A DNA stretch of 64,000 bases from assembly GCA_965116495.1 (NCBI GenBank), contig OZ220696.1:3872001-3936000 (forward strand), given 5' to 3'. Below, piece by piece: positions 12,271 to 28,502 of this stretch (the stretch's first letter is position 1; each line of letters starts with the position of its first letter). The position numbers were made by a program, and so were the translations under genes. The notes below the pieces were generated by a model. It was not told where the DNA came from. It saw nothing but the letters and a program-made list of their open reading frames with translations, and ran no database searches. Source of the stretch: Gammaproteobacteria bacterium (GTDB lineage Bacteria; Pseudomonadota; Gammaproteobacteria; Eutrophobiales; Eutrophobiaceae).

Positions 12271-12410
12271 GTGGAACTTATCCGGGAATTATCAATCATA
12301 TCCATATGGCCGGAGCGGCCGATTATGCTATGATGACGACAAAAAAATGAACAATCCGGTTTTTTCGCCAGGTGATGAGAAAACCGGGATGGATTAAGGG
12401 GATAGAGAAT

Positions 12411-12881
12411 ATGTATTTGAAAAGAAGTCTTTTTATAATGTTACTGTTACTGGGCTCCATGCAGGTGTCCGCCCAGCAGATTCACATCATTAACGCGGAA
12501 GCGCGTATATTCAATCCGGACGTGATTTACGTAGAGCCGGGCGATAACGTGAGGTTCGTCAATATGACGTCCCATGACGCCGTATCGATTAATCAAGTGC
12601 CGCTTCCCGACGGCCAGGTGTTCGAGGGAATGCTTCCCGAAGGCGCCGAAGGCTGGAAAAGTAAAATGGGCAACGATTTTACCCTGCAACTAGACATAGA
12701 AGGTGTGTATCCCTTTGTGTGCATTCCCCATATCGGGTTCGGAATGGTGGGTGTCATCGTAGTAGGTGAGCCGGTCAACATCGATACTGCCATGGAGAAT
12801 GCGAGAGCCAACCTTACGGGTGGCTGGCGGCGGCTTATCGGCAAGATCCTCAAAGTGCAGCGGGCTGCGAAGAAAGGTTGA
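12411..12881 (+). CDS. Periplasmic type-1 copper protein (pseudoazurin/plastocyanin-like)
   Basis: Signal peptide; F.PD.I.VEPGD.V.F, SH, and Y.FVC.PH...GMVG (His/Cys/His/Met ligands); helical C-terminal tail. Confidence 0.88.
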   Translation: MYLKRSLFIMLLLLGSMQVSAQQIHIINAEARIFNPDVIYVEPGDNVRFVNMTSHDAVSINQVPLPDGQVFEGMLPEGAEGWKSKMGNDFTLQLDIEGVYPFVCIPHIGFGMVGVIVVGEPVNIDTAMENARANLTGGWRRLIGKILKVQRAAKKG

Positions 12882-13753
12882 TGAAAATGAAAAAATACTT
12901 GCTGGCGTGCCTGTTGCTGGTATCCGGTGTGGCGTCCGTACCGGCAGACGTCGGGGAAATGACCGCGTTGAAAGTGTGCGCCGACCCGTTTATGCTGCCC
13001 TTTTCCAATCGCAAGGAGCAGGGCTTCGAGAACAGGATTGCGGAATTGTTCGCGGAGAAACTGGGCGTGGAACTACAGTATGAATTTTTCCCCCAGAGAA
13101 TAGGGTTTATCCGCAATACTCTCAAGGCAGAATCCGAGTCAGGCACCGGCTACAAGTGCGACCTGGTGATGAGCGCGCCGGTGAATTTCGAGCGGGCTGC
13201 GGCTACAAACCCTTATTACACCAGTTCCTATGCCCTGGTCATGGCCAGGGGCCGGGGAATGGATGATGTCACCTCTCCGGAAATGCTGGTTGAAATGGTC
13301 AACAATGGATTGGAAATAAAATTTGGCGTGACTGATCGTGGCCAGGACCAGTTCTGGGTGTTCAGGCACGGTCTGATGGGGAGTATAGTGCCGTACCAGG
13401 GACAACCTGGCGACCCCGAGGTGTATCCGGGTAAAACATTGACCGAGGATTTGCTTGCCGGGAGAATTGATGCGGCGATTATCTGGGGGCCTACCATAGG
13501 ATATTTTGCCAAAACCATGGAAGGTGGTGAGAATCTTATCATCCTGCCGTTAAGTGATGATCCTACGTCCGCCTACCTGAAGTTTACGTTCACTGTAGCA
13601 ATGGCGGTAAGGCACGGAGAAAAAGAGTGGAAGGACAAGGTAAATCAACTGATTGCCGAGAACCAGGCGGAAATCAACGCCATCCTGGAAGACTATGGCG
13701 TACCGTTGCTGCCGCTGGAAAAAATAGAAATACGGGAAGATGATGACGACTAA
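12881..13753 (+). CDS. xoxJ: MxaJ/XoxJ-family periplasmic binding protein
   Basis: LKVCADP..LPFSN...GFENRIA, GFIRNTL, CDLVM, WGP..GYF, L.DYGVPL. Confidence 0.9.
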   Translation: MKMKKYLLACLLLVSGVASVPADVGEMTALKVCADPFMLPFSNRKEQGFENRIAELFAEKLGVELQYEFFPQRIGFIRNTLKAESESGTGYKCDLVMSAPVNFERAAATNPYYTSSYALVMARGRGMDDVTSPEMLVEMVNNGLEIKFGVTDRGQDQFWVFRHGLMGSIVPYQGQPGDPEVYPGKTLTEDLLAGRIDAAIIWGPTIGYFAKTMEGGENLIILPLSDDPTSAYLKFTFTVAMAVRHGEKEWKDKVNQLIAENQAEINAILEDYGVPLLPLEKIEIREDDDD

Positions 13754-14522
13754 AATATCGGCCACAGAGATTCATCTGCGGATAATTCTATGCGCCCTGT
13801 GGCTATTTTCATCGGTGGTCGCTGTTGCCGAGGACGCGGATGACGGCGTAGAAGTGAAGGGGGCTACCATTGGCAGAATGGGCGACCCCGTTGCCGTTGA
13901 CCCGGATACCTATGAGTTTGCCGACGCGGAAGCCAAACTCTGGCTGGATAATCACCTGCAGAACATCAACAGCCCGGGGCGGCTTTATTACGATTTCGTC
14001 AAGCGCGGGAGTTACGAGGAAGGTTTCAGCGACTCCGTCTACCTGGATATCGTCGAGGTGAACGAGGACGGCAGCAAGAATGCCGACCTGGAATTTTTCA
14101 CCGCAGATAGACAGCAGGATGCGCGCGGCGACAACCTTGTCGGCGTAACGGGTAACCCGGTCCTGCTTGTCTATATGCAGGGAGACGTCTACGAGATGAA
14201 TCGCCTGACCAACGGCAGTTGGCGCTATTTCCAGAGGCGGATCAAGTCTGCTTTTGCAGAGGAAGCGAAAATAGAAACGGTTTCGTTTGAATATGACGGA
14301 ACGCAACTGACCGGCGAGAAAATTTCCATCACCCCGTATCTCAACGACCCCAGGCGGAGGCAGTTCGCCGAGTTTGCTCCCAAGGTGTATGAATTCATCC
14401 TGTCCGATCAGGTACCGGGGAAACTGTACCAGATCAAGACCGTCATCCCGGACACAGCACCGGACAAGGAACCGTTGATAGAAGAGATCCTGACCCTGCA
14501 GAACGCAGAATTCACGGACTGA
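13740..14522 (+). CDS. Conserved exported hypothetical protein of the xox cluster
   Basis: Overlaps xoxJ; signal peptide; GNPVL, YF..RI, I.PY..DP and VPG..Y.I pattern. Confidence 0.7.
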   Translation: MMTTKISATEIHLRIILCALWLFSSVVAVAEDADDGVEVKGATIGRMGDPVAVDPDTYEFADAEAKLWLDNHLQNINSPGRLYYDFVKRGSYEEGFSDSVYLDIVEVNEDGSKNADLEFFTADRQQDARGDNLVGVTGNPVLLVYMQGDVYEMNRLTNGSWRYFQRRIKSAFAEEAKIETVSFEYDGTQLTGEKISITPYLNDPRRRQFAEFAPKVYEFILSDQVPGKLYQIKTVIPDTAPDKEPLIEEILTLQNAEFTD

Positions 14523-14559: not shown

Positions 14560-15381
14560 TCACCTGGCTGCATTGAGCAGCACCATGACTTCTCCCTTGC
14601 CTTTGTTCGCCATATCGCCGCTGTACAAACGGACTTCCGGGCCGAAATTTCGGAAAAACCGATAACGGCTGCCCATCCGGGAGAGCTGTTTGAAAAACAG
14701 GCGCAGATATTCCATCTTCAACGTACCGCAGTTCGCCAGGGTGGTGCCGATTTTCTCAGGACGCCTGCCCAGTATGATGGTCCCGCGTTTCATCCCGTAA
14801 CCCGGGAGTTTGCCGGATTTGCCCAGTATCAAAATGGTGCCGGCAACCATCCCCGCGCCGCTGAAGTCACCGGCGTCACCACCAATCATGATCATCCCGC
14901 GCCGCATCTTGTCACCGAGACGATTTCCGGCATTGCCCCATACCGTTATCAGGCCGTCCCGCATTCCCTGCATGCTGGTTCGGGCCCCGGCCCCGATGTA
15001 ATCGCCGGCATCGCCTTCGACATCGATCCTGCCCCAGTACATATCGCAGCCGAGCCAGTCGCCGCAACTGCCGTTGACCCTGATTGTGCCGCCTGTCATC
15101 CCGTGTCCGAGGTAACTGCCGCCGTGCGCCTTGACACTGATATGCCCGCGCGTCATCCGGTCGCCTATCCGGGTAACCAGTTCCGTCGTGCGGCGTAATT
15201 CGATATGCTCAGGGTCTTCCCCGCTAATGGAAAACAGCTCCCCGGCCCTGACCGGCCTGGAACCGTAGGCCAGTTCGATCCCGGCGATATTATCCGCGAC
15301 CGACAGCCTGTCCGGTGTCAGCGCTGATAAATCCAGTGTCCGCTGCGGTTTTTTCTTCAAGGTGAAAATCATGGGATTCAT
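14560..15381 (-). CDS. fhcC: Formyltransferase/hydrolase complex subunit C
   Basis: GltB/FmdC beta-helix GxxMxxG repeats; LDLSALTP and GD...GKGE motifs. Confidence 0.92.
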   Translation of the reverse strand: MNPMIFTLKKKPQRTLDLSALTPDRLSVADNIAGIELAYGSRPVRAGELFSISGEDPEHIELRRTTELVTRIGDRMTRGHISVKAHGGSYLGHGMTGGTIRVNGSCGDWLGCDMYWGRIDVEGDAGDYIGAGARTSMQGMRDGLITVWGNAGNRLGDKMRRGMIMIGGDAGDFSGAGMVAGTILILGKSGKLPGYGMKRGTIILGRRPEKIGTTLANCGTLKMEYLRLFFKQLSRMGSRYRFFRNFGPEVRLYSGDMANKGKGEVMVLLNAAR

Positions 15382-16274
15382 TTCAGAATTTCCCTGAGAT
15401 GGAAATGGTGAGGTCCCAGTTTTCCGCCGTAGTTGCCGGCACTGATCCGGTAGATGCCCTTGTCGGGCCCGTTTTTACAGACCGCCTCGATACCGGCGCG
15501 CATGGCGGCGCGGATCGCCGCTTCATTCAGGCCGTCTATGACGATCTCCAAGACGGAGCCGATTTCTTCCGTCAGCACGCTGTTTACCCGGCTTTTCAGG
15601 GTGGGACAGAAGACCTCGTTTGTCGAGGCCGGTAGAAATGAGTATTTCGAGCCTACCTTGGAACCGGAACCGACTATTCCGCCGGGAAACGTGGTAACAG
15701 CACCATCTACGGCGCGAATCGCCTTGACGGCTTTTTCGCAGGCGCTCAGACCGTGACGGGAGGTTTTTGCCATGACAAGGAAATTGCCGCCGCCGATGGC
15801 AGGAACGACGCCGGTGGTTTCTTCGCACAGAAATTCGCCGTGCATGACCGGGATGCGCCAGTAACGGATACCGTCCAGTATTTTTGATATCTGGTGCCCG
15901 TCGCCAAAATATCGCAGGCTTTTACCCAGGGGTAACATGGTATCGCTGTGGGTCCCGGCAAAACAGGCGCTGGTCGCGGTAGTCATTACGGATTGTCCGA
16001 CGCGCCGGGTGAGCTGGTCGGCCAACTGCGATTTCGACATGGCAAACATGATGATCGCTACACCGGGCCTGCCATCCGGGGTTTCTTCCGGTTTCAGTTC
16101 CCGCTCAATATCCGCCTCACAACCGCAGGCAATCACGGACGAAGCAAATCCGGTCAGGGAATTGGCCGCGATGTATGCATACTTCATGGTCATGGCGGTG
16201 ATGATCAGCCGGGTCGCCTTCATGGGGAAGGCTTCCGCAAACGTATCGTCAATGGTTACGCCGTTGATGTTCAT
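15378..16274 (-). CDS. fhcD: Formylmethanofuran:H4MPT formyltransferase (Fhc subunit D)
   Basis: IDDTFAEAF, TPDGRPG, LRYFGDG, GGGN, GSKVGSKY, SAGNYGGKLG. Confidence 0.95.
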   Translation of the reverse strand: MNINGVTIDDTFAEAFPMKATRLIITAMTMKYAYIAANSLTGFASSVIACGCEADIERELKPEETPDGRPGVAIIMFAMSKSQLADQLTRRVGQSVMTTATSACFAGTHSDTMLPLGKSLRYFGDGHQISKILDGIRYWRIPVMHGEFLCEETTGVVPAIGGGNFLVMAKTSRHGLSACEKAVKAIRAVDGAVTTFPGGIVGSGSKVGSKYSFLPASTNEVFCPTLKSRVNSVLTEEIGSVLEIVIDGLNEAAIRAAMRAGIEAVCKNGPDKGIYRISAGNYGGKLGPHHFHLREILK

Positions 16275-16292
16275 AATTAAAAGATATAATAA

Positions 16293-16431
16293 ATCCGCAG
16301 ATGACGCAGATTAACGCAGATGTTTTCAGGTATTATTTATGCCAGTCTGCTGTATGCCTGCATTCACGATAACAGCCTGAAAGATATAAAACTCTTAATA
16401 TAATCTGCGTTAATCTGCGTCATCTGCGGAT
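16293..16431. repeat. REPIN-like inverted repeat between fhcA and fhcD
   Basis: Perfect 29-bp arms ATCCGCAGATGACGCAGATTAACGCAGAT and its complement around an ~80-bp spacer; right arm encodes the fhcA C-terminus and stop. Confidence 0.85.
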
Positions 16432-18086
16432 AAATCCTGTTTGCAGTCATGCACCAGCAGCGAATGTTGATTATACCCCTCCAATTCGTCACGGCTGAGT
16501 TTGTAGTTTTCCAGGTTCATGGTCATGTACCTGTCAAAATAGCGTTTCAGGGGTTTTTCTATGCCCCGGTCGTAGTCCGGTTCGACCACGTGGGTGGACG
16601 TGGCCGGTATGGCGCAGACCTTGCCGTTCCGGACGCAGAGTTCGCCGCGTTTGAATACGTACTCCGGGCTGCTGAACATGGTCTCTGCGTTGCCGTCGGG
16701 TTTATAGACGGTGATATCCGCGGTTGCTCCAGTACCCAGGTGGCCGAGGTTGTCCAGTCCCAGGCTCCTGGCCGGCGCGGCGCGGGTGAGAATTGCGATC
16801 TCGTATAATGAATATTCCCGGTCGATTGTGGACAGGATACTTGCGCTGGCGGCATCCTTGTTGATAGTGGCCAGCATGTCGTTGCGGAAGCCCTTGTCCA
16901 TGAGCAGCCTGATCAAATGCGGATATGAAGTGAATGGTGCGCCGTTGGGGTGGTCGGTGGTCAAAAAGACGCGCCAGGGATCGTCAACGAGTAAAAATAT
17001 CTCAAGGCCGATACACCACTGGAGGGCATTGACGAAATTCCTGTCCCGGTAGCGGAACGGCACCACGCCGCAGCCGGCATCGCATTCTATGTCCATGCAG
17101 ACCCATTTATTCGGATGGGCGTGAACATGTCCCCTGTGCTGCGTCATACTGTCGGCAGACGTGGTGATGGTCTGGCCGAACATGATCTGGCCGACGTCAA
17201 TGGATACGTTTCCGTTCCGGTTGACAGCCTCTGCTATCCGGGCCGCTTCGGATGAGAATTTCCTGTCACCCTCCTGCCCGTAACTGTGGAACTGTACATG
17301 AGTCAGGTGCAAGGGCTTGCCCTCGGCTGCAGCTATGGTGTCAAGCGTTGTCCGGTAATTTCCGGGCACCCCCAGGTTGCAGCCATGCACGTGCAGTGGA
17401 TGAGGAATGCCGAGGGCGTCCAGTGCGTCAAGCAGCGCGCACAGGATGTTACGTGGGGTGATCCCGTAGCCGTTGTTTTTTTCATCCAGGTCCAGCTTTC
17501 TCTGGTTGAACTTGAACGCATTGATACCCCCCGGGTTCACTACCTTGATGCCCATTGCCCGTGCTGCGTGGATTGTCCAGGCCACATAATCGTTGATCAC
17601 GGATTGGTCTTTTTTGCCCTGCAGCAGGCGCAGCAGGAAATCGTCGTTACCGAGCAGAACGTAAGCGCCCGTGTCCAGCATGGGGGTGTCCGCCATTTCC
17701 AGGTGCGAGGCGCGTGCATTTACAGGCATCATCGCCGGTTCGAAACAGGTGGTATAACCCATTTCGGCATAACGGTAGCCGGTGACGAAACTGGTAGGGG
17801 CAATGGTGCCGGAGCCCGAATGCGTGAGGTCTCCCGGGGACACCGGGTGACTGTCGTGGTCATCTGCAAGTAGTAACCTGGCGATATTGACCTTGCCCCC
17901 GCCGATGTGGGTATGGATGTCAATACCGCCTGCCATCACGATGCGGCCGCCCAGGTTTATTACCTGGTGAATTTTCTGATCCGGCGCCGGTTCGACCAGC
18001 ATGCCGTCCTGGACGTACAGGTCCAGTATTCTGCCGTCTATGCCGTTAGCCGGGTCGTAGACCTTACCGCCTTCGAGCTTTATCAT
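16410..18086 (-). CDS. fhcA: Formyltransferase/hydrolase complex subunit A (amidohydrolase)
   Basis: Start MIKLEGGKVYDP at 18086 (ATGA overlap with fhcB); DIHTH, KVVNPGG, HPLHVH, HVQFHSY, TTDHPNG. Confidence 0.95.
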   Translation of the reverse strand: MIKLEGGKVYDPANGIDGRILDLYVQDGMLVEPAPDQKIHQVINLGGRIVMAGGIDIHTHIGGGKVNIARLLLADDHDSHPVSPGDLTHSGSGTIAPTSFVTGYRYAEMGYTTCFEPAMMPVNARASHLEMADTPMLDTGAYVLLGNDDFLLRLLQGKKDQSVINDYVAWTIHAARAMGIKVVNPGGINAFKFNQRKLDLDEKNNGYGITPRNILCALLDALDALGIPHPLHVHGCNLGVPGNYRTTLDTIAAAEGKPLHLTHVQFHSYGQEGDRKFSSEAARIAEAVNRNGNVSIDVGQIMFGQTITTSADSMTQHRGHVHAHPNKWVCMDIECDAGCGVVPFRYRDRNFVNALQWCIGLEIFLLVDDPWRVFLTTDHPNGAPFTSYPHLIRLLMDKGFRNDMLATINKDAASASILSTIDREYSLYEIAILTRAAPARSLGLDNLGHLGTGATADITVYKPDGNAETMFSSPEYVFKRGELCVRNGKVCAIPATSTHVVEPDYDRGIEKPLKRYFDRYMTMNLENYKLSRDELEGYNQHSLLVHDCKQDLSADDAD

Positions 18087-19321
18087 GCCGGATTGCCTTC
18101 CAATTGTGAGATAACCTCCCTGATGATCCGGGCGGCGCTGGGGGATCCGGAGTCTCTCACTTGTTTCAGGGGCATATTGATGATGTTGTCCGTCCTGAAC
18201 AGACTGCCGGCGTGGTCGATGCCGGGAATTCCCACGGGGATATAAACGTCGGCGTCTGCTGCCCCGGTACGGTATGGGGATAAAATTATCGTGGGGACGT
18301 TTAACGCCGGGGGACGGTCGTCTGCTAAAGTCGAGATCCATAGCAGGCTGTCCACGGCAGATATGTCGGCAGCGGCGCCGGACGGACATCCGGAACGAAA
18401 ATTGACGCCGGTCGGGAATCCGGTCTGCCAGGTAGCCACGCCCTGGAAGGATGCAGCGCCGTTACTGCCGCTGAGTGACAATCCGGCGAAGCGCTGCCGG
18501 GTGTTCAGGTCGCGCGCCAGGTCCAGTATCGAATTGATGATCAGGTCCGCATGGTCCTGCGGTAATGCTGCCGGGCACCATACCAGCACGCCATAACGCG
18601 CGTTCCGTACCATCCCTGCAACCTGGTTCAGTTTGCGGTTTTTTGCCGCCGGTATGGCCTGGTAGTCAGACAGTTGTTCATCTGCCAGTCTGGCGCGCAG
18701 CAGCGCCAGGTTGTCGGCTATTTCATCAGCGTGGCCGGACACGACAACGGGAGCGTGGTCATTGAATTCATTCAACTCCGCAGTACCGGGCCGGCCCAGG
18801 TAGGCCAGTTTCCTGTTGTTTGATGCGGCGAACAGGGAGTAGGGGGATTTGATGAAGCGTTCGATGAACCGGGGATAATCCCCGGTAACGTTTTCACCGA
18901 TAAAGATGACGGTATCCGCCCTGTTTTTCACCTCTGCCAGGGTGGTCATAATCCCGCCCCGGGTCTGTAGCGCTTTCAGGTTATGGCCGGCATGGTGTTC
19001 GTGTGCCTGCAGGAGCGCGGCATCGACCTTTTCGGCGAGGCGCAGGGCTGCGCGTATGCCGTCCACGTCGGTGCCGAGGCCCGCTATCAGCGGTTTGCCG
19101 GACTGTCGAAGTAGCGCGGCTGCGGCTGTTACCGCCTGGTCGATGGTCGCCGGAATGCCTTTAACGCTTGCCTGCGCAGCAGGGGGGGGAGCGGCAAAGC
19201 CCTGCACGGCAAGCCGGCAGTCGTTGGCGGATACGTCAAGTTGTTGCTGATTGTTACGGACCGTCAGGTCATCGCACAAAAGACTGCAAAACGGGCAGGT
19301 TACATTCGCTGTTGACGCCAT
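18083..19321 (-). CDS. fhcB: Formyltransferase/hydrolase complex subunit B (no Mo/W site)
   Basis: CPFCSLLCDD N-terminus, TTLAEVKNRAD, WQTGFP, G.LFRTD; lacks VCHGP and RGH motifs. Confidence 0.9.
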   Translation of the reverse strand: MASTANVTCPFCSLLCDDLTVRNNQQQLDVSANDCRLAVQGFAAPPPAAQASVKGIPATIDQAVTAAAALLRQSGKPLIAGLGTDVDGIRAALRLAEKVDAALLQAHEHHAGHNLKALQTRGGIMTTLAEVKNRADTVIFIGENVTGDYPRFIERFIKSPYSLFAASNNRKLAYLGRPGTAELNEFNDHAPVVVSGHADEIADNLALLRARLADEQLSDYQAIPAAKNRKLNQVAGMVRNARYGVLVWCPAALPQDHADLIINSILDLARDLNTRQRFAGLSLSGSNGAASFQGVATWQTGFPTGVNFRSGCPSGAAADISAVDSLLWISTLADDRPPALNVPTIILSPYRTGAADADVYIPVGIPGIDHAGSLFRTDNIINMPLKQVRDSGSPSAARIIREVISQLEGNPA

Positions 19322-19336
19322 TCGAAGTTAATGACT

Positions 19337-20701
19337 TCAGTCCAGCAGGGCCAGCATTTCATTGACATAGGTGTATTTCTCCCGGGGTTTGCCTGCAGGT
19401 TCACCCCGTGTAATCTCGGCAGCATCGATTATTTTCCAGTCTGCGAAGCTGATATGGCGGATATTACTCCGGTCGAGGATTTCGTAACACCCCGCCGCGC
19501 CGCTCTTGTTTGCACCGGTATCCAGGCTGTCAAGGTCATCCATTAACATGCTTATTGTTTCCACGCTGTCTGCCTTGTTGGTACCGATGATGCCGGTAGG
19601 GCCGCGTTTTATCCACCCGGCCGCATACAAGCCGGGTTCCACCGCGCCGTCCTTTGTGACCCTGCCTTTGTCATTCGAAAACACCCCTCGTGATTCGTCA
19701 AACGGTACTCCCGGCATCGGAATGCCGTGGTAACCTATACTGCGAAATACGATTCCCGCGTCAATACTGAACGTCTCACCACTGCCTCTTGCCGACTGCC
19801 GGAATGCCTCCCCTGACAGGGTGTTTTTTTCAATTAGCAGTCGTTCGACCCTGCCGGCGCCGGATATTTCCCTGGGACTCTTGAGGAAAGTAAAGATACA
19901 GCGTCGCTCACCGGCCGCTTCCCGGCCGGCAAAACCGCAGAACAGGTCGTAGATTTTTTTATTGCCGGTATTTGCCAGTTCGGCTTCGCTTTCCGGGTTC
20001 AGCGCCAGTTCACCGGCGTCGATCACCGGGTCGCAGGCAGCCAGTACGCCGAACTCCTTCAATTCCTTGGAGGTGAACTTGGCCTGTGCCGGTCCGCGCC
20101 GGCCGATGACATAGATATTTGTTACTTTGCTCTCGGCCAGGGCATCCAGGGCGTGTCCGGCGATATCCGTGTGCTTCAGTTCATCAACTGTTTTGGCCAG
20201 TATCCGGCTCACGTCGGCGGCGACGTTGCCCTGGCCGATGATGACGGCGGTCTCGTGGGACAGGTCAAACTCCCTGTCGCGGTAATCGGGATGGCCGTTG
20301 TACCAGCCGACAAATTCCGTTGCCGTATAGCTGCCGGGAAGGTCTTCCCCGGGAATGCCGAGACGGCGGTCGGTCTCAGCCCCGCAGGTCAGGATCACCG
20401 CGTGGTGTGTTGCCCGCAGTTCATCTACGCTGATATCGGTGCCTACAACGACGTTCCCGATGTAATTGAACTGTTCCGCTTCGGCGATCCTGGCATAGAC
20501 CTTGATAGCCTGTTTCAGTTTCGGGTGATCCGGCGCAACGCCGCTTCTCACCAGGCCATACGGTACCGGCAAGCGTTCGAACATGTTGATCCTGACTTCG
20601 AGGTTCGCTTTGAAGAGCGCGTCAACAGCGTAGAATCCGCTGGGACCGCTACCGACTACGGCAACGATCAAGGGGTTATCCTGGGTTCCTAATCGACTCA
20701 T
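19337..20701 (-). CDS. Ferredoxin-NADP+ reductase, adrenodoxin-reductase/FprA type
   Basis: VGSGPSG.Y, PYGLVR.GVAPDH, FVGWYNGHP, IGQGNVA.D, RRGP.QA.F, GWIKRGPTG.IGTN, GKPREK. Confidence 0.92.
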   Translation of the reverse strand: MSRLGTQDNPLIVAVVGSGPSGFYAVDALFKANLEVRINMFERLPVPYGLVRSGVAPDHPKLKQAIKVYARIAEAEQFNYIGNVVVGTDISVDELRATHHAVILTCGAETDRRLGIPGEDLPGSYTATEFVGWYNGHPDYRDREFDLSHETAVIIGQGNVAADVSRILAKTVDELKHTDIAGHALDALAESKVTNIYVIGRRGPAQAKFTSKELKEFGVLAACDPVIDAGELALNPESEAELANTGNKKIYDLFCGFAGREAAGERRCIFTFLKSPREISGAGRVERLLIEKNTLSGEAFRQSARGSGETFSIDAGIVFRSIGYHGIPMPGVPFDESRGVFSNDKGRVTKDGAVEPGLYAAGWIKRGPTGIIGTNKADSVETISMLMDDLDSLDTGANKSGAAGCYEILDRSNIRHISFADWKIIDAAEITRGEPAGKPREKYTYVNEMLALLD

Positions 20702-20879
20702 GATTTACACAATAATATTCAGCCTGGATGTTCACATCCACTGACGTAATATCCGGGTTGGAAGAGAAACGTATCCCGAACACCCGACGCCGCGCCGAAC
20801 GGGTTTGTCCGGGGATGAACTGGGGAACCTGTTAAGCCAGGGGTTCCCTGAATTTGCAGAATACCTGCCAGCCGGAGTA

Positions 20880-21198
20880 CTAGCCCGGATTTCTCACCAG
20901 GTCGCTTGTTGCTATCTGAAACATATTTGCTATCAATAATTTATGGTAATAGTTTTACTATTCTGTCATTACAGACTGCGCTTGATGCGCCCTCGCTTGT
21001 CTTTTGTCCGCCAGCGGGCACGTGCTTCCTCAACCATAGCTACGGCTATGCTTTCGGTCGCAGGCGCCCGCTGGCGGGACAAATCTGCCAGGAGCAGATT
21101 TGGACGTCCGCAGGACGCCCGCAGGGTGTGCGCCACGGAAGGCGCACATCTAAAATCCGGCGCGATCATCGCATCACCTGGTGAGAAATCCGGGCTAG
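20880..21198 (+). mobile_element. MITE family A, copy 1 (carries nested 76-bp module)
   Basis: CTAG flanks, perfect 19-bp TIR CCCGGATTTCTCACCAGGT; body homologous to 26849-27097; no transposase. Confidence 0.85.
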
Positions 21199-21500
21199 AA
21201 ACCCAGGGCGGCTTTCCTTTCGTCCGCGCCGGGTAACGGATCCATGGTATCGGTGATGACCGGCAGCTCCTTGGATTTTTCCGCGTTGATTTCAATCCAC
21301 TCGTACTTGTCCTCGGGCAGGTCATCTTCCTCGTAGATTGCCTCGACCGGACATTCCGGCAGGCACGCACTGCAATCGATACAGACCTCCGGGTCGATAT
21401 ATAACATCTGATCGTCGTAGTGGAAGCATTCTACCGGGCATACCGCGACGCAATCGGTATAGCGACAGTCTTTACAGTTATCAGTTACGATAGTTGTCAT
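21195..21500 (-). CDS. fdxA: 7Fe ([3Fe-4S][4Fe-4S]) ferredoxin, Azotobacter FdI/FdxA type
   Basis: VTDNC..C.YTDCV.VCPV.CF and CIDC.AC.PECP..AI.EEDDLP motifs; AGGAG RBS. Confidence 0.92.
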   Translation of the reverse strand: MTTIVTDNCKDCRYTDCVAVCPVECFHYDDQMLYIDPEVCIDCSACLPECPVEAIYEEDDLPEDKYEWIEINAEKSKELPVITDTMDPLPGADERKAALGF

Positions 21501-21554: not shown

Positions 21555-22364
21555 TTATCCAGCATATAATAATATTTCACCCCGGTTCAATTCAACACTG
21601 TCGCCGCAGTAACGTTTGAATAAACCCTGAAGGTATTCTTCACCTATCGCAAAGACATCCATCAGGTAGATGAGGTAAAGCATCAGGTAACCCGGCCGGT
21701 AAGTGCAAGAATAGCTGAAGGTGGGCAGCAAGTGTGCGCTCTTCAGACTGGCGATGCTGCCCCGTTTCATGCCCGCCCCGGTGCGGATACCCAGTTCTCC
21801 CAGTACAATTATGCTGCCGGAGAGCATATTGACCCCGGTGAAGTCCCCGCTGTTGCCGGCAACGGCGATTAACCCGTTGCGCATTGCATTGCCGGTCTCG
21901 TTACGCACATTGCCGTGAATGATGATTTCCCCGCCTGTCATGCCCATGGTTGCACCCCGGTAGGCGCTCCCTACCATGTGGCCTGCATTGCCGCGAATTT
22001 CAATTCTGCCGCCGGACATCTCCGGCCCAACCCAGTCGGCGGCATTGCCGTTAACCCGTATTTCACCCCCGCTCATGGCGGCCCCAAGGTGTTCGCCGAC
22101 GTCACCTTCCACCTGGATGGTCCCCCGTGACATCCCGGCGCCGATGAGTTTTACCCGCCCCAGGTGGTCTCCCTGCACGTTGATGACCCCGTCGGATTGG
22201 CCTGTCACGCTGAAGAAGTCACCGATATAACGGGGTTCACTGCCATGCATGACGGTCAGTTTTTCCACGCTCGCCGGGGTCTGGCCGGTGAGGCGGGCAG
22301 GGGTAATGTTGTCCGCCTCAAGGGGAACGTCCGGTGTCGCGATTTGTTTCAGCGAAAAAGGCAT
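21555..22364 (-). CDS. fwdC: Formylmethanofuran dehydrogenase subunit C (second paralog)
   Basis: PLEADNITP, G.HLGA.MSGG, GSAYRG...GMTGG, LLPTF, GD......GEI. Confidence 0.9.
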   Translation of the reverse strand: MPFSLKQIATPDVPLEADNITPARLTGQTPASVEKLTVMHGSEPRYIGDFFSVTGQSDGVINVQGDHLGRVKLIGAGMSRGTIQVEGDVGEHLGAAMSGGEIRVNGNAADWVGPEMSGGRIEIRGNAGHMVGSAYRGATMGMTGGEIIIHGNVRNETGNAMRNGLIAVAGNSGDFTGVNMLSGSIIVLGELGIRTGAGMKRGSIASLKSAHLLPTFSYSCTYRPGYLMLYLIYLMDVFAIGEEYLQGLFKRYCGDSVELNRGEILLYAG

Positions 22365-22440: not shown

Positions 22441-23331
22441 TCAGGCCACCAGTTCATGCAGGTTAATCTTGTACTGGCCGAGGTTGCCGCCGTAGTTTCC
22501 GGCAGTGATCTGCCTGATCCCCGGTTTTGCCGCAGCCCGGATGCCCGCAGCCATGGCCTCCCTCACCGCGCGCTCTGTCAGGCCGTCAATCACGATTTCC
22601 AGGGCGCAGTTGACATCTGCCGGGAGGCTGCTGTCGGTTACCGCTTTCAGCGTTGGACAGTAGGCATCATTGGTGGACGCGGGCAGGGTTTTGTAACGTG
22701 AACCCACTTTGCTGCCGCTGCGCACGACACCATCGGGAAAGGGCAGGATAATATCCTTTACCGCAGCCATGGCCCGGGTGGCCGCGCCGGCTGCAGCCAG
22801 GGCTTTTTTCTCATCGGTCCCCAGTATGATGATATTCCCTCCGCCTACGGATTTCTGTACGGCAAACGATTCTTCCACGGTAAATTCACCATCCATGACC
22901 GGGATACGCCAGAACCGCCGCTGCGCCAGTTTCTTGCTGCCCTGGAAGCCATCGCCGAAATAACGCAGTTGCGAACCGACCTGGACAACCTCTTCACCAT
23001 CCAGGCCGTTGAAACAAGCCGTAGTCGGGCAGGTCATCACACACTGGCCGATGCGTTCAAGCAGGCGCTTGCCTACCGACGCCTTGTCCATGGCGAATAA
23101 CAGGATGCTGACGCCCGGCCGGCGGTCCGGGGTCTGATCGGGTGGCAGGATGCTCTCTATACCGGCCTCACATTTACAGCCGATCACCGAGGTGGCAAAC
23201 CCGGTCATCGATTGTGCCGCGGCCAGGCTCCAGCGTTTGGTCGCCGCGGTAACAATCACCCGCGCTCCCCACATGCTGAAGGCTTCGGCAAAGGTTCCGA
23301 CAATTTCCGTTGACCTGAGCTTCATCATCAC
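22441..23331 (-). CDS. ftr: Formylmethanofuran:H4MPT formyltransferase (second paralog)
   Basis: TFAEAF, TGFATSVIGC.CEAG, TPD.RPG, RIGQCV.TCPTTACF, LRYFGDG, AGNYGG.LG. Confidence 0.93.
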   Translation of the reverse strand: MMMKLRSTEIVGTFAEAFSMWGARVIVTAATKRWSLAAAQSMTGFATSVIGCKCEAGIESILPPDQTPDRRPGVSILLFAMDKASVGKRLLERIGQCVMTCPTTACFNGLDGEEVVQVGSQLRYFGDGFQGSKKLAQRRFWRIPVMDGEFTVEESFAVQKSVGGGNIIILGTDEKKALAAAGAATRAMAAVKDIILPFPDGVVRSGSKVGSRYKTLPASTNDAYCPTLKAVTDSSLPADVNCALEIVIDGLTERAVREAMAAGIRAAAKPGIRQITAGNYGGNLGQYKINLHELVA

Positions 23332-24965
23332 ACCGTTGCGATCACTTCATGGTCATGCAGGTAACTGTCATTGACCGCATAATTCGCAAATTCGATGGAA
23401 TAATAGCTCTCAAAAAACGGCCTGACCTCGGCGACGATGGATTCGTCGTATGCGGGTTCCGTATGCAGGAATTTCCCGTAGAAATCCCGGCAGAACTCGT
23501 GGTTGTCGATAATGACGTTACCTGATTTAATCACGTAACGGGGCGCGTTGAACATGGCCTCCTTGTCGTCCATCTCATCGTAGATGGTGATATCCGCGTC
23601 CGCGCCCGCGCCCAGGTGCCCCTTGTTTTTCAGGTTCAGTGCCCGGGCCGGGCCGGCGCGGGTGATGATTGCTATCTCATTGAGTGTATATTCGCGGTCC
23701 AGTTCATTCAGTATCGTACCGTTGATGGCCTTCTGGTTGACGCGCTTGATTTCCTCCTTGCGGAATTCCTTGTCCATCAGCAGGCGGATCAGCTTGGGGT
23801 AGCTCATAAAGGAGCCGCCATTCGGATGGTCGGTGGACAGGACGATACGCCAGGGGTCCCTGGACAGCAGGAACAGTTCCAGGCCGATAGCCCATTGCAG
23901 GGCATGGACATAGACATGCTCCTGGTAGCTGAACGGAACGATACCGCAACCGCTCTCGCATTCCGTATCGGCGTTGACCCATTTCGCTTTTTTAAAACCC
24001 CTGAGCATGTAGGCCAGCGGTGCGTCCGCGGTCATGATCGTGGATTTGCCGAACATGACCTGGCCGACGTCGCAGGTGATATTGGGGTGGTCGTTAACGT
24101 ACTCGGCGATCTGCCGGGACGCGGATTTGGGGTTCTTGCCGAGCTCTCCCGCGTAGCTGTGGAATTGGATGTGGGCCAGGTGCGCGCGTCTGTCGCCCGC
24201 CGTTTTCATGGTCTCCAGGGTGGTCTCGAAGTTGCCGCTATGGCCCAGGTTGTTGCAGTGAATATGGGGCGGATGCGGTAGACCCAGTTCATTGACCGTT
24301 TCAATAAAAGAATCGATTACCTGCCGGGGTGAGACCTCTATAAACTCACTTTTTTCATCAATATCCTTGACGTTTGAATTCTTTTTGCCCTTCCAGGGTT
24401 CATCTCCGCCCGGGTTCACCAGCTTGGTCGTGTAGGCCTTGGTCGCGTTAATCCACCAGGCTACCGCATGGCGAAACTCTTCCTTGCGGCCGGCCTTGAT
24501 CAACTGCTGTAAGAAAATATTATTACCCAGGAGTACGTAAAATCCTTTATCAATAACCGGCGTATCGTGAAACTCTTCAATGGTATGCCGGGCGCCGATA
24601 GGTGTGACGGCCGCTTCCATGGCGGTGGTGTAGCCCAGGGTGGCATAACGGTACCCTGTTGCAAAGGTGGAAGGAACGGTACCGCCGGCGCCGGACCGGG
24701 TGTGTTCCGTGGCAGGGTGGGGATCGCGGCGATGGTCTTCAGGCTGCAGTTTCCTGGCCAGGTTTACCTTGGGGCCGGCTATATGGCAGTGGATATCCAC
24801 GCCGCCGGGCATCACTACCATGCCGCTGACGTCTATCCTTCGGGGCGTGGAGGAAGGCGTCTCGACCATGCGCCCCTGTTCCAGGTAAAGGTCTTTTATT
24901 GCCCCGTCGATGCCGTTGGCCGGGTCATGAACCTTGCCCCCTGCAAGTTGAATGCATTCCGTCAT
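23328..24965 (-). CDS. fwdA: Formylmethanofuran dehydrogenase subunit A (second amidohydrolase paralog)
   Basis: DIHCHIAG.KVN, KLVNPGG, H.HCNNLG, HIQFHSY, STDHPNGG metal ligands. Confidence 0.93.
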   Translation of the reverse strand: MTECIQLAGGKVHDPANGIDGAIKDLYLEQGRMVETPSSTPRRIDVSGMVVMPGGVDIHCHIAGPKVNLARKLQPEDHRRDPHPATEHTRSGAGGTVPSTFATGYRYATLGYTTAMEAAVTPIGARHTIEEFHDTPVIDKGFYVLLGNNIFLQQLIKAGRKEEFRHAVAWWINATKAYTTKLVNPGGDEPWKGKKNSNVKDIDEKSEFIEVSPRQVIDSFIETVNELGLPHPPHIHCNNLGHSGNFETTLETMKTAGDRRAHLAHIQFHSYAGELGKNPKSASRQIAEYVNDHPNITCDVGQVMFGKSTIMTADAPLAYMLRGFKKAKWVNADTECESGCGIVPFSYQEHVYVHALQWAIGLELFLLSRDPWRIVLSTDHPNGGSFMSYPKLIRLLMDKEFRKEEIKRVNQKAINGTILNELDREYTLNEIAIITRAGPARALNLKNKGHLGAGADADITIYDEMDDKEAMFNAPRYVIKSGNVIIDNHEFCRDFYGKFLHTEPAYDESIVAEVRPFFESYYSIEFANYAVNDSYLHDHEVIATV

Positions 24966-24971
24966 ATTGGC

Positions 24972-26336
24972 TTACTGCATGGGTGCTGCGGCTTTGCTCT
25001 CTCCGCTTGCTCCTCTGGCCTGGCCTTTCGCCAGAACCAGTTCGCGCACACGCTTTTTGACTGCGGTAAGAATTTCCTCATCGTTCGGAAAAGGTGAATC
25101 AAAGGCCTTGCGCAAGGTGATAGGCACGTCGTCCATGCGGTATACGGTACCGGCCGTATTGATGCCGTAGGTAGAGGTCCGAAAAGCAACGTGCGCCAGC
25201 TTGCTGGTGAGAGTCGCCTTGGTATCCAGGCATATCACCGGAATTCTGGACAGGTGGTCAATAGCCGCCTGGGGAAAATTGGACGCAGGGTCGGTGGCAA
25301 CAATCAAAGCGGCGTCGACATCTTGCTTGGCCAGTAAATCGACGGTGGTGAACTCGCCCGGGTTGAAACGGGGGAACCCCCGGCTGAAATTAACACCGAA
25401 GGGATAGCCGGTCTGCCAGGACATGACGTTATCTGCGCCGGTTACGTTGCCATGGCCGCGCACAGGCTTGGCAACGAAATGGGTATATTCATTCAGGTCC
25501 GTAGCCAGGGCCAGCAGCGCGCCTGAATTAAAGTGCCGGCCGCGGGTCATGGTCAGGCCCATGCCGAAAAACAACACGCCGTAGCGGCAGTTTTTCATCC
25601 TGTCGACCAGTTCCTGCAGGGTTTCCAGGCTGATTCCGGTAATCTCCTCGATTTCCGGGTCGATTTTGCGGTTTTTCACCAATGCCCTCAGGGCCCATAA
25701 CAACTCGAAGTCTTTTCCGGGTTTTACCTGGATGAACTGGTGAGCTGCCGGCGCGCTGGGTGTCCTGCGTACGTCGACCATGACCACGTGACGGTCCTTT
25801 TTGCCGCGCGGCGTAAACATCCCTTTGGCGGTGACGGCATAACGGCCGAAATGGCGCGGGTGGGACTCCGCAGGATTGCCGCCCCAGTAAATGACCAGGT
25901 CGGCGCGGTTTTTTACCTCGCCCAGGGTCATGGTGCTTTCACCGACGCCCTGCAAGGCAATGCCGGAAGGCCCGTGGCAGACTGAAGTTGTGGTGTCGAT
26001 GTTGCCCTTGATGGTATCGGTAATGGCCACGGCTTGTTTCTGCGCCTCACAGGTCGTATCGCTGAGACCGTAAGTGATGGGGAACCTGGCGTTAACCAGG
26101 GTCCTGGCGGCTTCTTCCACTGCCTCGTCAATGGAGACGGGCCGATTATCTATCATGGCGGCAGGAGCGTCTTCCTCGATATAGTGCTCCGCAAACCAGG
26201 CTTTGCCGAGTATGCAGGCGTTCTTTGACTTGGTAATCCGTTTTTCGTCCAGGTCCACCGTCAGGATCATGTCATCACAGACACAACCACAGAAGGTACA
26301 GGTGGCATTTTCTACAACTTTGACGTTTTCACTCAT
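24972..26336 (-). CDS. fwdB: Formylmethanofuran dehydrogenase subunit B with intact Mo/W-pterin catalytic motifs
   Basis: Start MSENVKV (GGGGAGA RBS); CTFCGCVCDD...C [4Fe-4S] motif; SVCHGP (metal Cys + His); TLGEVKNRAD; WG.NP..HPRH; RGH.NV.G; GT.YRMD.VP. Confidence 0.92.
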   Translation of the reverse strand: MSENVKVVENATCTFCGCVCDDMILTVDLDEKRITKSKNACILGKAWFAEHYIEEDAPAAMIDNRPVSIDEAVEEAARTLVNARFPITYGLSDTTCEAQKQAVAITDTIKGNIDTTTSVCHGPSGIALQGVGESTMTLGEVKNRADLVIYWGGNPAESHPRHFGRYAVTAKGMFTPRGKKDRHVVMVDVRRTPSAPAAHQFIQVKPGKDFELLWALRALVKNRKIDPEIEEITGISLETLQELVDRMKNCRYGVLFFGMGLTMTRGRHFNSGALLALATDLNEYTHFVAKPVRGHGNVTGADNVMSWQTGYPFGVNFSRGFPRFNPGEFTTVDLLAKQDVDAALIVATDPASNFPQAAIDHLSRIPVICLDTKATLTSKLAHVAFRTSTYGINTAGTVYRMDDVPITLRKAFDSPFPNDEEILTAVKKRVRELVLAKGQARGASGESKAAAPMQ

Positions 26337-26368: not shown

Positions 26369-26713
26369 TTAACTGATTTTTTCCACCTGGACAGAAATAT
26401 GTTTTGACAGGGGCATTCCGCTGCCGGCTGTGTCGCTTTCCATCAGGCGGCTCGACACAGGCCCGTAAGCTATGAACATCATGCCTTCCGGCAGGTCGGT
26501 GGCTTTTTTGGAAACGCAGGTAACAACGACCTCCCCGATATGATTTTTCAAGCACAGCTTATCACCGTTGTCGAAACCGAGCCGGGCCATATCATCCGCA
26601 TTTATTTCGACGGTGGATGTGACGTCCCGGTACTCATCGCCGAGCTTCCCCTTGTTAAGGGAAGTCCCCTGTTTACTGGATCGTCCCGGGATTAACAACA
26701 TGGTTACAGGCAT
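26369..26713 (-). CDS. fwdD: Formylmethanofuran dehydrogenase subunit D (molybdopterin dinucleotide-binding)
   Basis: LI.GRS.KQG, D..LG, P.G..FI.YGP, T.G.GMP..K...V.V; first gene of the run, directly before fwdB. Confidence 0.88.
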   Translation of the reverse strand: MPVTMLLIPGRSSKQGTSLNKGKLGDEYRDVTSTVEINADDMARLGFDNGDKLCLKNHIGEVVVTCVSKKATDLPEGMMFIAYGPVSSRLMESDTAGSGMPLSKHISVQVEKIS

Positions 26714-27097: not shown

Positions 27098-27189
27098 GTC
27101 AGAGTTTTCTTAGAATTCATGGATGTCCCAAATTAGAATACTTGGAATTTATGGATATCCCGAATTAGAATATCCCCGTGGTTTTGAAG

Positions 27190-28206
27190 ATGAAGACACG
27201 AGAAGACATCGCTGCTGCTGAAACTGTGAGGGTTGCCGCGGCAGCCCGCCTGCACCTGGGCTTCCTGGATTTGAACGGTGGCTTGCACAGGCGCTACGGC
27301 AGTATCGGGGTCGGGATAACGGGTTTTTCCACGGTGGTGAGTGTCTGCCATAGCGACCGGGTTGATATCGAGGGAGCGGATGATGAATATATCGCCCGGA
27401 TAACGGAAACCGTCCTGGATTATTTCCGCCTGAATTCCGGGGTCAGGGTTAAAGTTGAAGAATATATTCCCCGGCACCAGGGTCTGGGTTCCGGCACACA
27501 GATGGCCCTGGCATTGGGCGCTGCCATCACCGGCCTGTACGGTATCGACACCACGGTTGACGAACTTGCGCTTGCAACAGGAAGAGGAGCGCGTTCCGGG
27601 GTAGGGCTGGGGGTGTTCAAGGAGGGTGGTTTCATTCTTGACAGCGGCAAGACCGGAGGACACGGGTTGCCGACGCTGATATTCCGCCACGACCTTCCTG
27701 AAGAATGGCAGTTCGTCCTGGTGATGGATGAACGGGCCAAAGGGATAAACGGGATGGAAGAAATCGAAGCGTTCAATTCATTGCCGGATATGTCCCCCGA
27801 GGCCAGCGCGGAGATTTGCCAACAGGTATTGATGCGGATGCTGCCGAGTATTATAGAAAAAGATTGCGGGCAATTCGGTGCATCCGTCAGCAGGATACAG
27901 GCGCGCATCGGCGACTATTTCAGCGCTGCCCAGGGAGGTATGTTTGCCAGTGACAATGTAAGACGGACGCTTGAATTCCTGTTGGAAAACAAGGCAACAG
28001 GTATCGGCCAGACATCCTGGGGGCCGACCGGGTTTGCTGTATTCCCGGATAAAAAATCGGCAATGCAGGCCGTAGACAATTTAATCGGGAGGGATATGCA
28101 GGTAAGCCTGCGGTTTGCCGGGGCGGAAAACAACAAGGCCCAAGTCAACAGACTGGTGACGGCGGAGGCAGGACTGAAATCAGACCCCGCAACCCTGTTA
28201 CGGTAA
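27190..28206 (+). CDS. mptG: beta-ribofuranosylaminobenzene-5'-phosphate synthase (H4MPT biosynthesis, Orf4)
   Basis: ARLHLGFLDL, P.H.GLGSGTQ (GHMP), R.ARSG.G...F..GGF..D.G, GQ.SWGPTG. Confidence 0.9.
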   Translation: MKTREDIAAAETVRVAAAARLHLGFLDLNGGLHRRYGSIGVGITGFSTVVSVCHSDRVDIEGADDEYIARITETVLDYFRLNSGVRVKVEEYIPRHQGLGSGTQMALALGAAITGLYGIDTTVDELALATGRGARSGVGLGVFKEGGFILDSGKTGGHGLPTLIFRHDLPEEWQFVLVMDERAKGINGMEEIEAFNSLPDMSPEASAEICQQVLMRMLPSIIEKDCGQFGASVSRIQARIGDYFSAAQGGMFASDNVRRTLEFLLENKATGIGQTSWGPTGFAVFPDKKSAMQAVDNLIGRDMQVSLRFAGAENNKAQVNRLVTAEAGLKSDPATLLR

Positions 28207-28270
28207 ACTGCTATAAACATCAGTAATTCCCTCATCCGGCATAATCAGCGGGGGCCCCTGTATAAACATT

Positions 28271-28299
28271 TGGACATTTGCCGGGCAGTGTTTTACAAT
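28271..28299 (+). promoter_or_regulatory. Possible sigma70 promoter upstream of mch
   Basis: TGGACA-N17-TACAAT. Confidence 0.35.
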
Positions 28300-28502
28300 T
28301 CGCTCCCTTGCCGTAGGTATAACGTGATTAGCGTGGTGCAGATGGGGCCTTACGTTTTGGTGTGCCGACAGGTGTACAGCCCGTATATCAACATGCGCAT
28401 TTCACGCCGCGCTGCCGACGGGTTTTTATCCTGCTCGGAAAATTTCGTGAATTATTGGTCCGGGAAGACCCGGATGTGAATACACACATTACTATTAATG
28501 AC

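Follow-up and report, generated by a model that had tools for sequence, protein, structure and literature searches.

An FdI-type ferredoxin and an FprA-type reductase as putative electron outlet of an intact-type formyl-methylofuran dehydrogenase in a gammaproteobacterium

The fwd-fdxA-fpr-fhc locus

The window, a stretch of 64,000 nucleotides (G000:C1:3872001-3936000), belongs to the genome (G000) of an uncultured gammaproteobacterium with genes for methanol oxidation, which is present as one contig of 4.34 Mb (99.5% complete). It carries two paralogous formyl-transfer gene sets, fwd and fhc, on the minus strand, together with mptG, mch, citG-like and fae genes. Two genes between the sets, fdxA for a ferredoxin and fpr for a flavoprotein reductase, are candidates for the electron outlet of the formyl-methylofuran (formyl-MFR) dehydrogenase Fwd. 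The order on the minus strand is fwdD-fwdB-fwdA-ftr-fwdC-(54 bp)-fdxA-(493 bp)-fpr-(15 bp)-fhcB-fhcA-fhcD-fhcC. The original prediction, made from the letters of the window, had located the ferredoxin gene 54 bp past fwdC and the end of the reductase gene 15 bp ahead of the fhcB start (19321). Both positions were confirmed; the 493 bp between fdxA and fpr had not been mentioned. The predicted absence of a FwdF/G/H-type gene was borne out by profile scans of the cluster proteins. A polyferredoxin was not detected elsewhere either, since a genome-wide motif scan, which did not use hidden Markov models, yielded no open reading frame (ORF) with more than two CxxCxxCxxxCP motifs.

The pterin-capping fourth domain, FwdD (26369..26713, 114 amino acids [aa]), was assigned by Pfam (PF01568 above cut-off); its score with the archaeal NCBIfam model NF042908 (E 9.5e-22) is below cut-off. 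The intact-type Mo/W subunit FwdB (24972..26336, 454 aa) reaches 512.7 bits with TIGR03129 (cut-off 327.8) and matches FwdB of Methanothermobacter wolfeii (5T5I) with E 4.6e-111. The amidohydrolase subunit FwdA (23328..24965, TIGR03121), the formyltransferase Ftr of the Fwd set (22441..23331, TIGR03119) and FwdC (21555..22364, TIGR03122) score above cut-off, and Ftr is 49% identical to FhcD. FwdA contains the motifs that we take to provide its metal ligands. The gene fdxA (21195..21500, 101 aa) encodes a dicluster ferredoxin of the Azotobacter ferredoxin I (FdI) type (E 4e-31 in a PDB search). An FAD enzyme of the FprA/adrenodoxin-reductase type is encoded by fpr (19337..20701, 454 aa). The second set comprises fhcB (18083..19321, below the TIGR03129 cut-off and placed by alignment), fhcA (16410..18086, TIGR03121), fhcD (15378..16274, TIGR03119) and fhcC (14560..15381, TIGR03122).

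Catalytic residues of the two paralogous sets

In an alignment, FwdB retains the catalytic Cys120-His121, Arg293 and the Fe-S ligands Cys13/16/20/41. Among 98 rows, Cys120 is conserved in 96, His121 and Arg293 in all and the Fe-S cysteines in 97; both rows without Cys120 are a distant outgroup (L135, L136). The catalytic residues are equivalents of Cys118/His119/Arg288 in the tungsten enzyme FwdABCDFG of M. wolfeii (numbering of PMC6926001), and the G000 set shares with the archaeal Fwd/Fmd enzymes also the four Fe-S cysteines and the subunits FwdD, FwdA and FwdC. Unlike the M. wolfeii enzyme, it possesses a 7Fe-type ferredoxin and an FprA-type reductase, ftr lies inside the operon, the bacterial host also contains Fhc, and the direction is likely oxidative. 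The FwdF/FwdG ferredoxin relay was found neither in the cluster nor in the genome motif scan. The enzyme is therefore regarded as a variant that would work like Fwd, not as a canonical Fwd.

Fhc is characterized by the lack of a catalytic Cys, of FwdD and of a redox function. This description applies only to fhcBADC and not to fwdDBA-ftr-C. FhcB has neither the catalytic Cys nor the Arg, but the four N-terminal cysteines are kept. FhcB of Methylorubrum extorquens likewise lacks the catalytic residues, and the FhcABCD of this organism (6S6Y), with a formyltransferase gene beside those of the A, B and C subunits, is the kind of system to which fhcBADC of G000 belongs (PMC6926001). Fhc has no pterin site, FwdD or electron outlet and releases formate, whereas the fwd set of G000 keeps a pterin site, FwdD and a putative outlet. 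The four Fe-S cysteines of FhcB are retained in 23 of 28 class genomes checked and in none of 30 Methylococcales checked.

FwdB would be loaded with a W- or Mo-pterin cofactor. G000 encodes an FdhD homologue and other molybdopterin enzymes, as well as what is, judged by its motif, presumably a TupA-like binding protein. In one metagenome lineage, fdhD, the sulfurtransferase gene for formate-dehydrogenase-type pterin sites, directly follows fpr (L143:15522-16418).

The ferredoxin and the reductase

FdxA is acidic, with 25 Asp/Glu against 7 Lys/Arg. The nine-cysteine FdI pattern (Cys9/12/17/21/25/40/43/46/50) is invariant in 49 of 49 sequences, and the C-terminal extension DUF3470 is present (PF11953, 29.3 bits, cut-off 23.2). 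The score with the NCBIfam equivalog FdxA_Protbact remains below cut-off (120.8 versus 135 bits). The protein, a diverged paralogue whose tail differs, is therefore classed as FdI-like and not as the housekeeping FdxA. The housekeeping gene adjoins a mutS-like gene elsewhere in G000, and its product is 51% identical to the cluster FdxA. In a tree of 42 ferredoxins, 35 cluster-type rows, including an unlinked third copy from G014, were separated from seven housekeeping-type rows with 100% support in the Shimodaira-Hasegawa-like approximate likelihood ratio test (SH-aLRT). All trees are quick LG+G4 reconstructions with SH-aLRT support only, and the outgroup of the FwdB tree is not resolved. In aerobes, 7Fe ferredoxins are enriched (PMC7039249).

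Fpr matches 1LQT, FprA of Mycobacterium tuberculosis, over residues 10-451 (E 4.5e-112) and adrenodoxin reductase 1CJC (E 1.5e-100), a full-length match without Fe-S domains. By sequence, FdxA and Fpr thus belong to the families of Azotobacter vinelandii ferredoxin I and of FprA. The FAD motif, the GxGNVAxD NADP motif, Arg201-Arg202 and the active-site His are invariant in 50 of 50 sequences and align with 1LQT. The gene is single-copy in G000. We take the Arg-Arg pair to recognize the 2'-phosphate, and the role of the His is likewise our assumption. Plant-type Fpr has about 250 aa, and FAD_binding_6 matched no frame of this size in G000 (matching frames, 327-589 aa). No CysJ and no Nfn-like enzyme were found as another NADP-type ferredoxin reductase in G000, of which Fpr seems to be the only one. 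Thirty-six cluster reductases from Gammaproteobacteria, Rhodospirillales, Gemmatimonadales and metagenome loci were split from four unlinked FprA-type proteins with 99% SH-aLRT. The known use of M. tuberculosis FprA is electron transfer from NADPH via ferredoxin to P450s (PMC6469627), while the G000 genes belong to cluster-specific clades tied to Fwd. The available parts of two papers with further FprA background contain nothing on a bacterial Fwd system (PMC6469627, PMC8788690).

Co-occurrence and linkage of fdxA-fpr with fwd

Sixty-one genomes of relatives were compared, 36 of them with intact FwdB. Within these 36, fpr is present in 33 and the cluster-type fdxA in 34; the misses are G021 (77% complete), G046 (75% complete) and G026, which misses fpr only. 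Both genes occur in two of the 25 relatives without intact FwdB. A class-wide sample of 401 genomes contained 19 with intact-type FwdB, one of them unpublished (G232). Fpr was found in 19/19 of these (18/18 without G232) versus 6/381 other genomes scored. A stricter control, 21 genomes with FhcB but without intact FwdB among 300 class genomes scored, showed the cluster-clade reductase in two. Fisher tests were computed but are not relied on, as related genomes do not count as independent.

The reductase gene is physically linked to fwd in 17 of the 18 published FwdB genomes; in G310, the genes are split across contigs. Where fhc has been lost or relocated, the pair remains with fwd (G010, G028, G033, G243, G417, G472), and in G464, G510, L093, L097 and L142 it is located in front of fwdD. 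None of the fwd clusters mapped encodes another electron carrier. Across 45 loci, G000 included, the gap between fdxA and fpr has a median of 94 bp (range 3-527) and does not exceed 150 bp in 35. The pair is thus conserved in, and inherited with, the intact fwd cluster. A side observation concerns G243, G417 and G472 (each one contig, 1.7-1.8 Mb), G010 and G028, which possess Fwd and fdxA-fpr and showed no match to FhcB or a second FwdA. In these genomes, Fwd may be the sole exit from formyl-tetrahydromethanopterin (formyl-H4MPT).

A FwdD-CysJ fusion in Methylococcales

Of 151 Methylococcales genomes, 24 contain FwdB. All 24 also contain FwdD, in long frames in 20 (18 of 727-770 aa, two cut by contig ends) and as stand-alone gene in four; two more genomes have a FwdD match without a FwdB match. 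The 20 genomes with the long frame lack Fpr, and every frame fetched proved to be a CysJ-like fusion; most Methylococcales loci with intact FwdB contain neither fdxA nor fpr. An FprA-type reductase occurs in one of the 151 genomes, where FwdD stands alone and the reductase gene lies inside the fwd cluster. The fusion joins FwdD to flavodoxin, FAD and NAD(P) domains, scored above the CysJ cut-off (TIGR01931) in 3/3 scanned and is annotated as CysJ or sulfite reductase flavoprotein in public records. The motif S-R-x-K-x-Y, to which we ascribe a role with NADPH, is kept in 21/21 full-length fusion ORFs listed. When proteins of 396-1262 aa were searched with the FwdD portion, all 64 matches had the fusion layout, two of them being partial and without the last domain. 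The named matches were all MAG or metagenome records. CysJ is otherwise the NADPH diflavin subunit of assimilatory sulfite reductase; unlike it, the fusion has an N-terminal FwdD and lies by fwdB.

The fusion gene (L116:7535-9745, minus strand; also in L115, L118-L120, L124-L130, L132-L134 and L200-L203) is divergent from fwdB in most loci and unlinked in some (G062, G064). In G180 and G190, it directly follows fwdC and occupies the slot of fdxA-fpr. A separate, unfused CysJ exists in G061 and G065, while only the fusion was found in G062-G064. A plasmid search revealed only unfused CysJ among the best 8 of 250 records. In a tree of 60 FwdB rows, the fusion-bearing proteins form one clade (17 rows, 100%), and the other branches carry mostly FdxA/Fpr. 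Methylococcales have thus swapped fdxA-fpr for an unrelated module of NADPH type, predicted to use the same cofactor. That the reductase acts on Fwd itself is best indicated by its fusion to the subunit that caps the pterin.

A fused NfnAB-like protein related to PRK06567 (about 1218 aa) is encoded together with FdxA directly upstream of fwdD in some Methylococcales (L190:1080-5135, plus strand; L191-L193, L153). As a possible third module (G072, G075, G080, G098, L153), it was counted as weak only, because the family is housekeeping in this order (125/151 genomes).

Proposed electron transfer and its direction

FdxA and Fpr are interpreted as the electron outlet of a bacterial formyl-MFR dehydrogenase to NADP+, with a probability of roughly 0.6 on the sequence evidence. 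Ftr would shift the formyl group from H4MPT to methylofuran, FwdA would release formate into an internal channel, and the W/Mo site of FwdB/D would oxidize this internal formate to CO2. Electrons would pass from the single [4Fe-4S] cluster of FwdB to FdxA in place of FwdG/F, probably via the 3Fe-4S cluster of FdxA, and then via the FAD of Fpr to NADP+. This would constitute a formate-free, NADPH-yielding last step beside the route of Fhc and NAD-linked formate dehydrogenase. The chain of the original prediction, formyl-MFR to FwdB, FdxA, reductase and NADPH, stays the best explanation in view of linkage and module swap. However, the pair is neither exclusive nor universal, and the chain would run via FwdA and internal formate ahead of FwdB. 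Slightly better than even odds are given to a broader reading, in which aerobic proteobacteria retained a functional dehydrogenase of the methanogen type and connected it to NADP(H) on two occasions through unrelated modules, FdxA plus Fpr in many uncultured lineages and FwdD-CysJ in Methylococcales. Besides the formate-free NADPH-producing terminal step, this would imply an extant intermediate between Fwd and Fhc and, with one Fe-S cluster in the core, the simplest known Fwd.

Published potentials are -530 mV for formyl-MFR/CO2 (PMC11493965) and -320 mV for NAD(P) (PMC5861303). The oxidation of formyl-MFR with NADP+ amounts to about -40 kJ/mol on these values; the oxidative direction would therefore be favoured, and the reverse would not be driven by NADPH alone. 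The reverse with NADPH alone would be about +40 kJ/mol uphill, and the earlier statement that NADPH alone is a poor driver of it agrees with this. The clusters of Azotobacter FdI have potentials of -425 and -650 mV (PMC9044450), which makes transfer from formyl-MFR downhill to the 3Fe-4S cluster (-20 kJ/mol) and uphill to the 4Fe-4S cluster (+23 kJ/mol). If the clusters of FdxA resemble those of FdI, only the 3Fe-4S cluster would be downhill, a qualification of the chain predicted earlier. Ferredoxin-NADP reductases (FNRs) are reversible (PMC4518329) and Fpr is seemingly the sole NADP-type ferredoxin reductase; the pair therefore probably links ferredoxin and NADP(H) for other uses too.

Exceptions and alternative explanations

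Several observations weigh against the assignment as an outlet of Fwd. G006 (98% complete) and G011 (97%) lack fwdDBA-ftr-C and keep both genes. They are sisters (100%) next to the Fwd-bearing G005 and have no FwdB or second FwdA. Their ratios of nonsynonymous to synonymous substitutions (dN/dS) are 0.15 for fpr and 0.09 for fdxA at a dS of about 0.36 and indicate purifying selection; these are simple Nei-Gojobori counts, and most other pairs are near saturation. Faster evolution of fpr after the loss of fwd was not seen relative to fhcA/D. In G006, a restriction-modification/transposase block separates fdxA from fpr. Without intact Fwd, G369 keeps both genes and G529 fpr only; in all four genomes, the retained genes are beside fhc or mptG. 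In G298, fdxA and fpr surround a fwdA remnant (L223:1841-5454). The pair therefore has a use without Fwd, one explanation being the apparent lack of any other NADP-type ferredoxin reductase in G000. Conversely, fpr is missing from G026 (95% complete), which does have Fwd and FdxA. In the available locus DNA, L104, L141 and L144 show fwd without linked fdxA or fpr, while L114, L107 and L110 show fpr without fdxA (L108 begins at fwdB). The fwd genes of G510 (L222) are in several pieces, by decay or sequencing error. The co-occurrence with intact fwdB that the original prediction proposed to check thus holds among the relatives and in the class sample, but not in most Methylococcales FwdB genomes, G026, L104, L141 and L144; fdxA-fpr is neither exclusive to Fwd nor the only solution of Fwd. 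Moreover, the co-occurrence counts overstate independence because the genomes are kin, and the single clade of fusion-bearing FwdBs implies one replacement event. In G000, NADPH is likely also supplied by an MtdA-type dehydrogenase and by a PntA-like transhydrogenase (split PntA). A complex prediction for FwdB and FdxA reached a median of 0.21 versus a mark of 0.32 and is counted neither for nor against the assignment.

The pair could instead act in reactivation, as diflavin reductases do for methionine synthase. NADPH would then reduce FdxA through Fpr, and the low-potential electrons would serve to reductively activate or repair the FwdB centre, which is sensitive to oxygen, and to feed ferredoxin-dependent enzymes in general; the catalytic electrons would leave by a different carrier. 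This is unlikely, though it has to be taken seriously, because non-photosynthetic FNRs are described as producing reduced ferredoxin (PMC4518329), a direction that itself speaks against an outlet; FprA works this way towards P450s (PMC6469627). The purifying selection on the pair without Fwd suits such a supply role, as does the failure to find a CysJ, an Nfn-like or a plant-type-Fpr-sized FAD_binding_6 frame in G000. However, no other electron carrier is encoded in the mapped fwd clusters, a presence in 18/18 FwdB genomes versus 2/21 Fhc-only genomes is not the distribution to expect of a purely general reductase, and a complete reductase attached covalently to FwdD fits stoichiometric turnover. 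FdxA might also be the true acceptor of Fwd with the Rnf complex as main sink, yielding NADH and an ion gradient, and with Fpr as a side branch. The rnf-like genes of G000, so labelled on our assumption from sequence, and the existence of Fwd and FdxA without fpr in G026 would fit. The close linkage of fpr to fdxA in the 45 loci and the replacement in Methylococcales by a soluble NADPH-type reductase without ferredoxin argue otherwise and make this sink improbable.

A reductive role, in which CO2 would be fixed to formyl-MFR with reduced ferredoxin from reverse electron transport or bifurcation, is given very little weight. The active site does not set the direction (PMC11493965), the 4Fe-4S clusters of FdI type reach -650 mV (PMC9044450), and an Nfn-like protein and FdxA directly precede fwdD in four related Methylococcales. 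Against this stand the uphill step with NADPH alone, the housekeeping nature of the Nfn-like gene in Methylococcales, its absence among the genes found in G000, and a cluster that adjoins genes for a xoxF-type dehydrogenase, fae and mch. We know of no bifurcation by Fpr or CysJ. It is equally far-fetched that the pair serves the neighbouring Fhc, through a residual Fe-S cluster of FhcB, or the synthesis of pterin and furan cofactors instead of Fwd. Many members of the genus have a spacing of only -14 to 15 bp between fpr and fhcB, and after loss of fwd the genes stay beside fhc or mptG. No DmrB-like flavoprotein was found in G000, which leaves a cofactor-reduction step unaccounted for. Cysteine retention does not support a function for the FhcB cluster: with L290 and L301 excluded, all four cysteines persist in 10/11 genomes that have the pair and also in 13/17 that do not. 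This Fpr is also absent from 19/21 Fhc-only genomes and from 150/151 Methylococcales, and G243, G417 and G472 keep the pair with Fwd and show no FhcB match.

Relation to known systems

The F420-reducing FwdABCDGI stems presumably from Candidatus Ethanoperedens thermophilum. In this complex (8RJA), to which FwdB of G000 matches with E 1.2e-112, the polyferredoxin is replaced by a flavin reductase module and the formyl oxidation is exergonic. Its acceptor is F420, reached via FwdG and FwdI in one complex, whereas NADP+ is predicted as acceptor via FdxA and Fpr in G000 and via FwdD-CysJ in Methylococcales. For this archaeal Fwd of an ethane oxidizer, the exchange of FwdF for a flavin reductase has been described to result in an oxidative enzyme (PMC11493965). 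In the accepted view, the Fhc of aerobic methylotrophs is a Fwd that has lost its redox function (PMC6926001), and fwdD has been stated to be absent from Proteobacteria (PMC5020050, citing Chistoserdova 2013). Bacterial FwdB matches were counted as 149, some without the catalytic Cys, and the excerpts consulted name no electron module (PMC10100899). A literature search of titles and abstracts, with most subscription papers outside its reach, retrieved no report of a bacterial Fwd with linked FdxA/FprA or with a CysJ fusion.

Intact-type FwdB with FwdD thus occurs in 19 of 401 class genomes and in 24 of 151 Methylococcales, almost always with a NADP(H)-type module. If active, it would provide methanol and methane oxidizers with a second exit of the H4MPT pathway and with direct biosynthetic reductant, without free formate, and the redox bookkeeping in their metabolic models would change. 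It would represent a hitherto undescribed ending of one-carbon oxidation. For biochemistry and for CO2/formate catalysis, it would also offer a small Fwd whose host has an oxygen-type C1 metabolism. The FwdD-CysJ fusion makes the NADPH-outlet idea testable with few co-expressed genes.

Intergenic elements and wider C1 gene content

A miniature inverted-repeat transposable element (MITE) of 319 bp (20880..21198) with perfect 23-bp terminal inverted repeats lies in the fdxA-fpr gap and overlaps the fdxA stop codon. G000 contains five near-full copies including this one (82-100% identical). The ends are CTAG; related pieces occur in intergenic gaps of relatives, and a related element follows fdxA in G003. 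The strong folding of the gap (z -9) is due to the inverted repeats of the MITE. An ORF of 133 aa (20969-21370), which overlaps fdxA and the MITE and has no Pfam match, was rejected as a gene. The promoter and terminator scans performed at chance level (10 versus 8.7 +/- 2.5 and 18 versus 14.0 +/- 4.2, respectively); at this level, one weak promoter-like site (21595-21566) was indicated, and nothing resembling a terminator between fdxA and fpr.

Elsewhere, G000 encodes a NAD-type formate dehydrogenase pair, rnf-like genes, FtfL and FdhD; several of these C1 and redox gene labels are our assumptions from sequence. The only Mtd in G000 is MtdA-like (G000:C1:1158033-1158935), while MtdB, RuBisCO and Hps were not found. 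The window region 27178-29498 lacks mtdB and two cofactor genes that other genera have between mptG, mch and citG; matches to the two cofactor genes lie at about 1.854 Mb (G000:C1). In a search for a DmrB/AfpA-like flavoprotein with PF02441, none was detected in G000, the two matches resembling UbiX and CoaBC. In L056, L065, L069 and L048, fhcBADC (fpr in G028) is followed by a NuoEF-like and a formate-dehydrogenase-like gene.

A dehydrogenase of the pyrroloquinoline quinone (PQQ) family is encoded near the cluster according to a profile match, and we take it to be of xoxF type. A gene for a SoxY-SoxZ fusion is divergent from it. Between xoxF and xoxJ, where no cytochrome c gene was seen, sits a gene for an azurin-family protein, followed by one for a conserved 260-aa protein without Pfam match. 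These genes lie at window positions 8954-9790 and 12372-14522. At least six further PQQ-dehydrogenase paralogues are present in G000.

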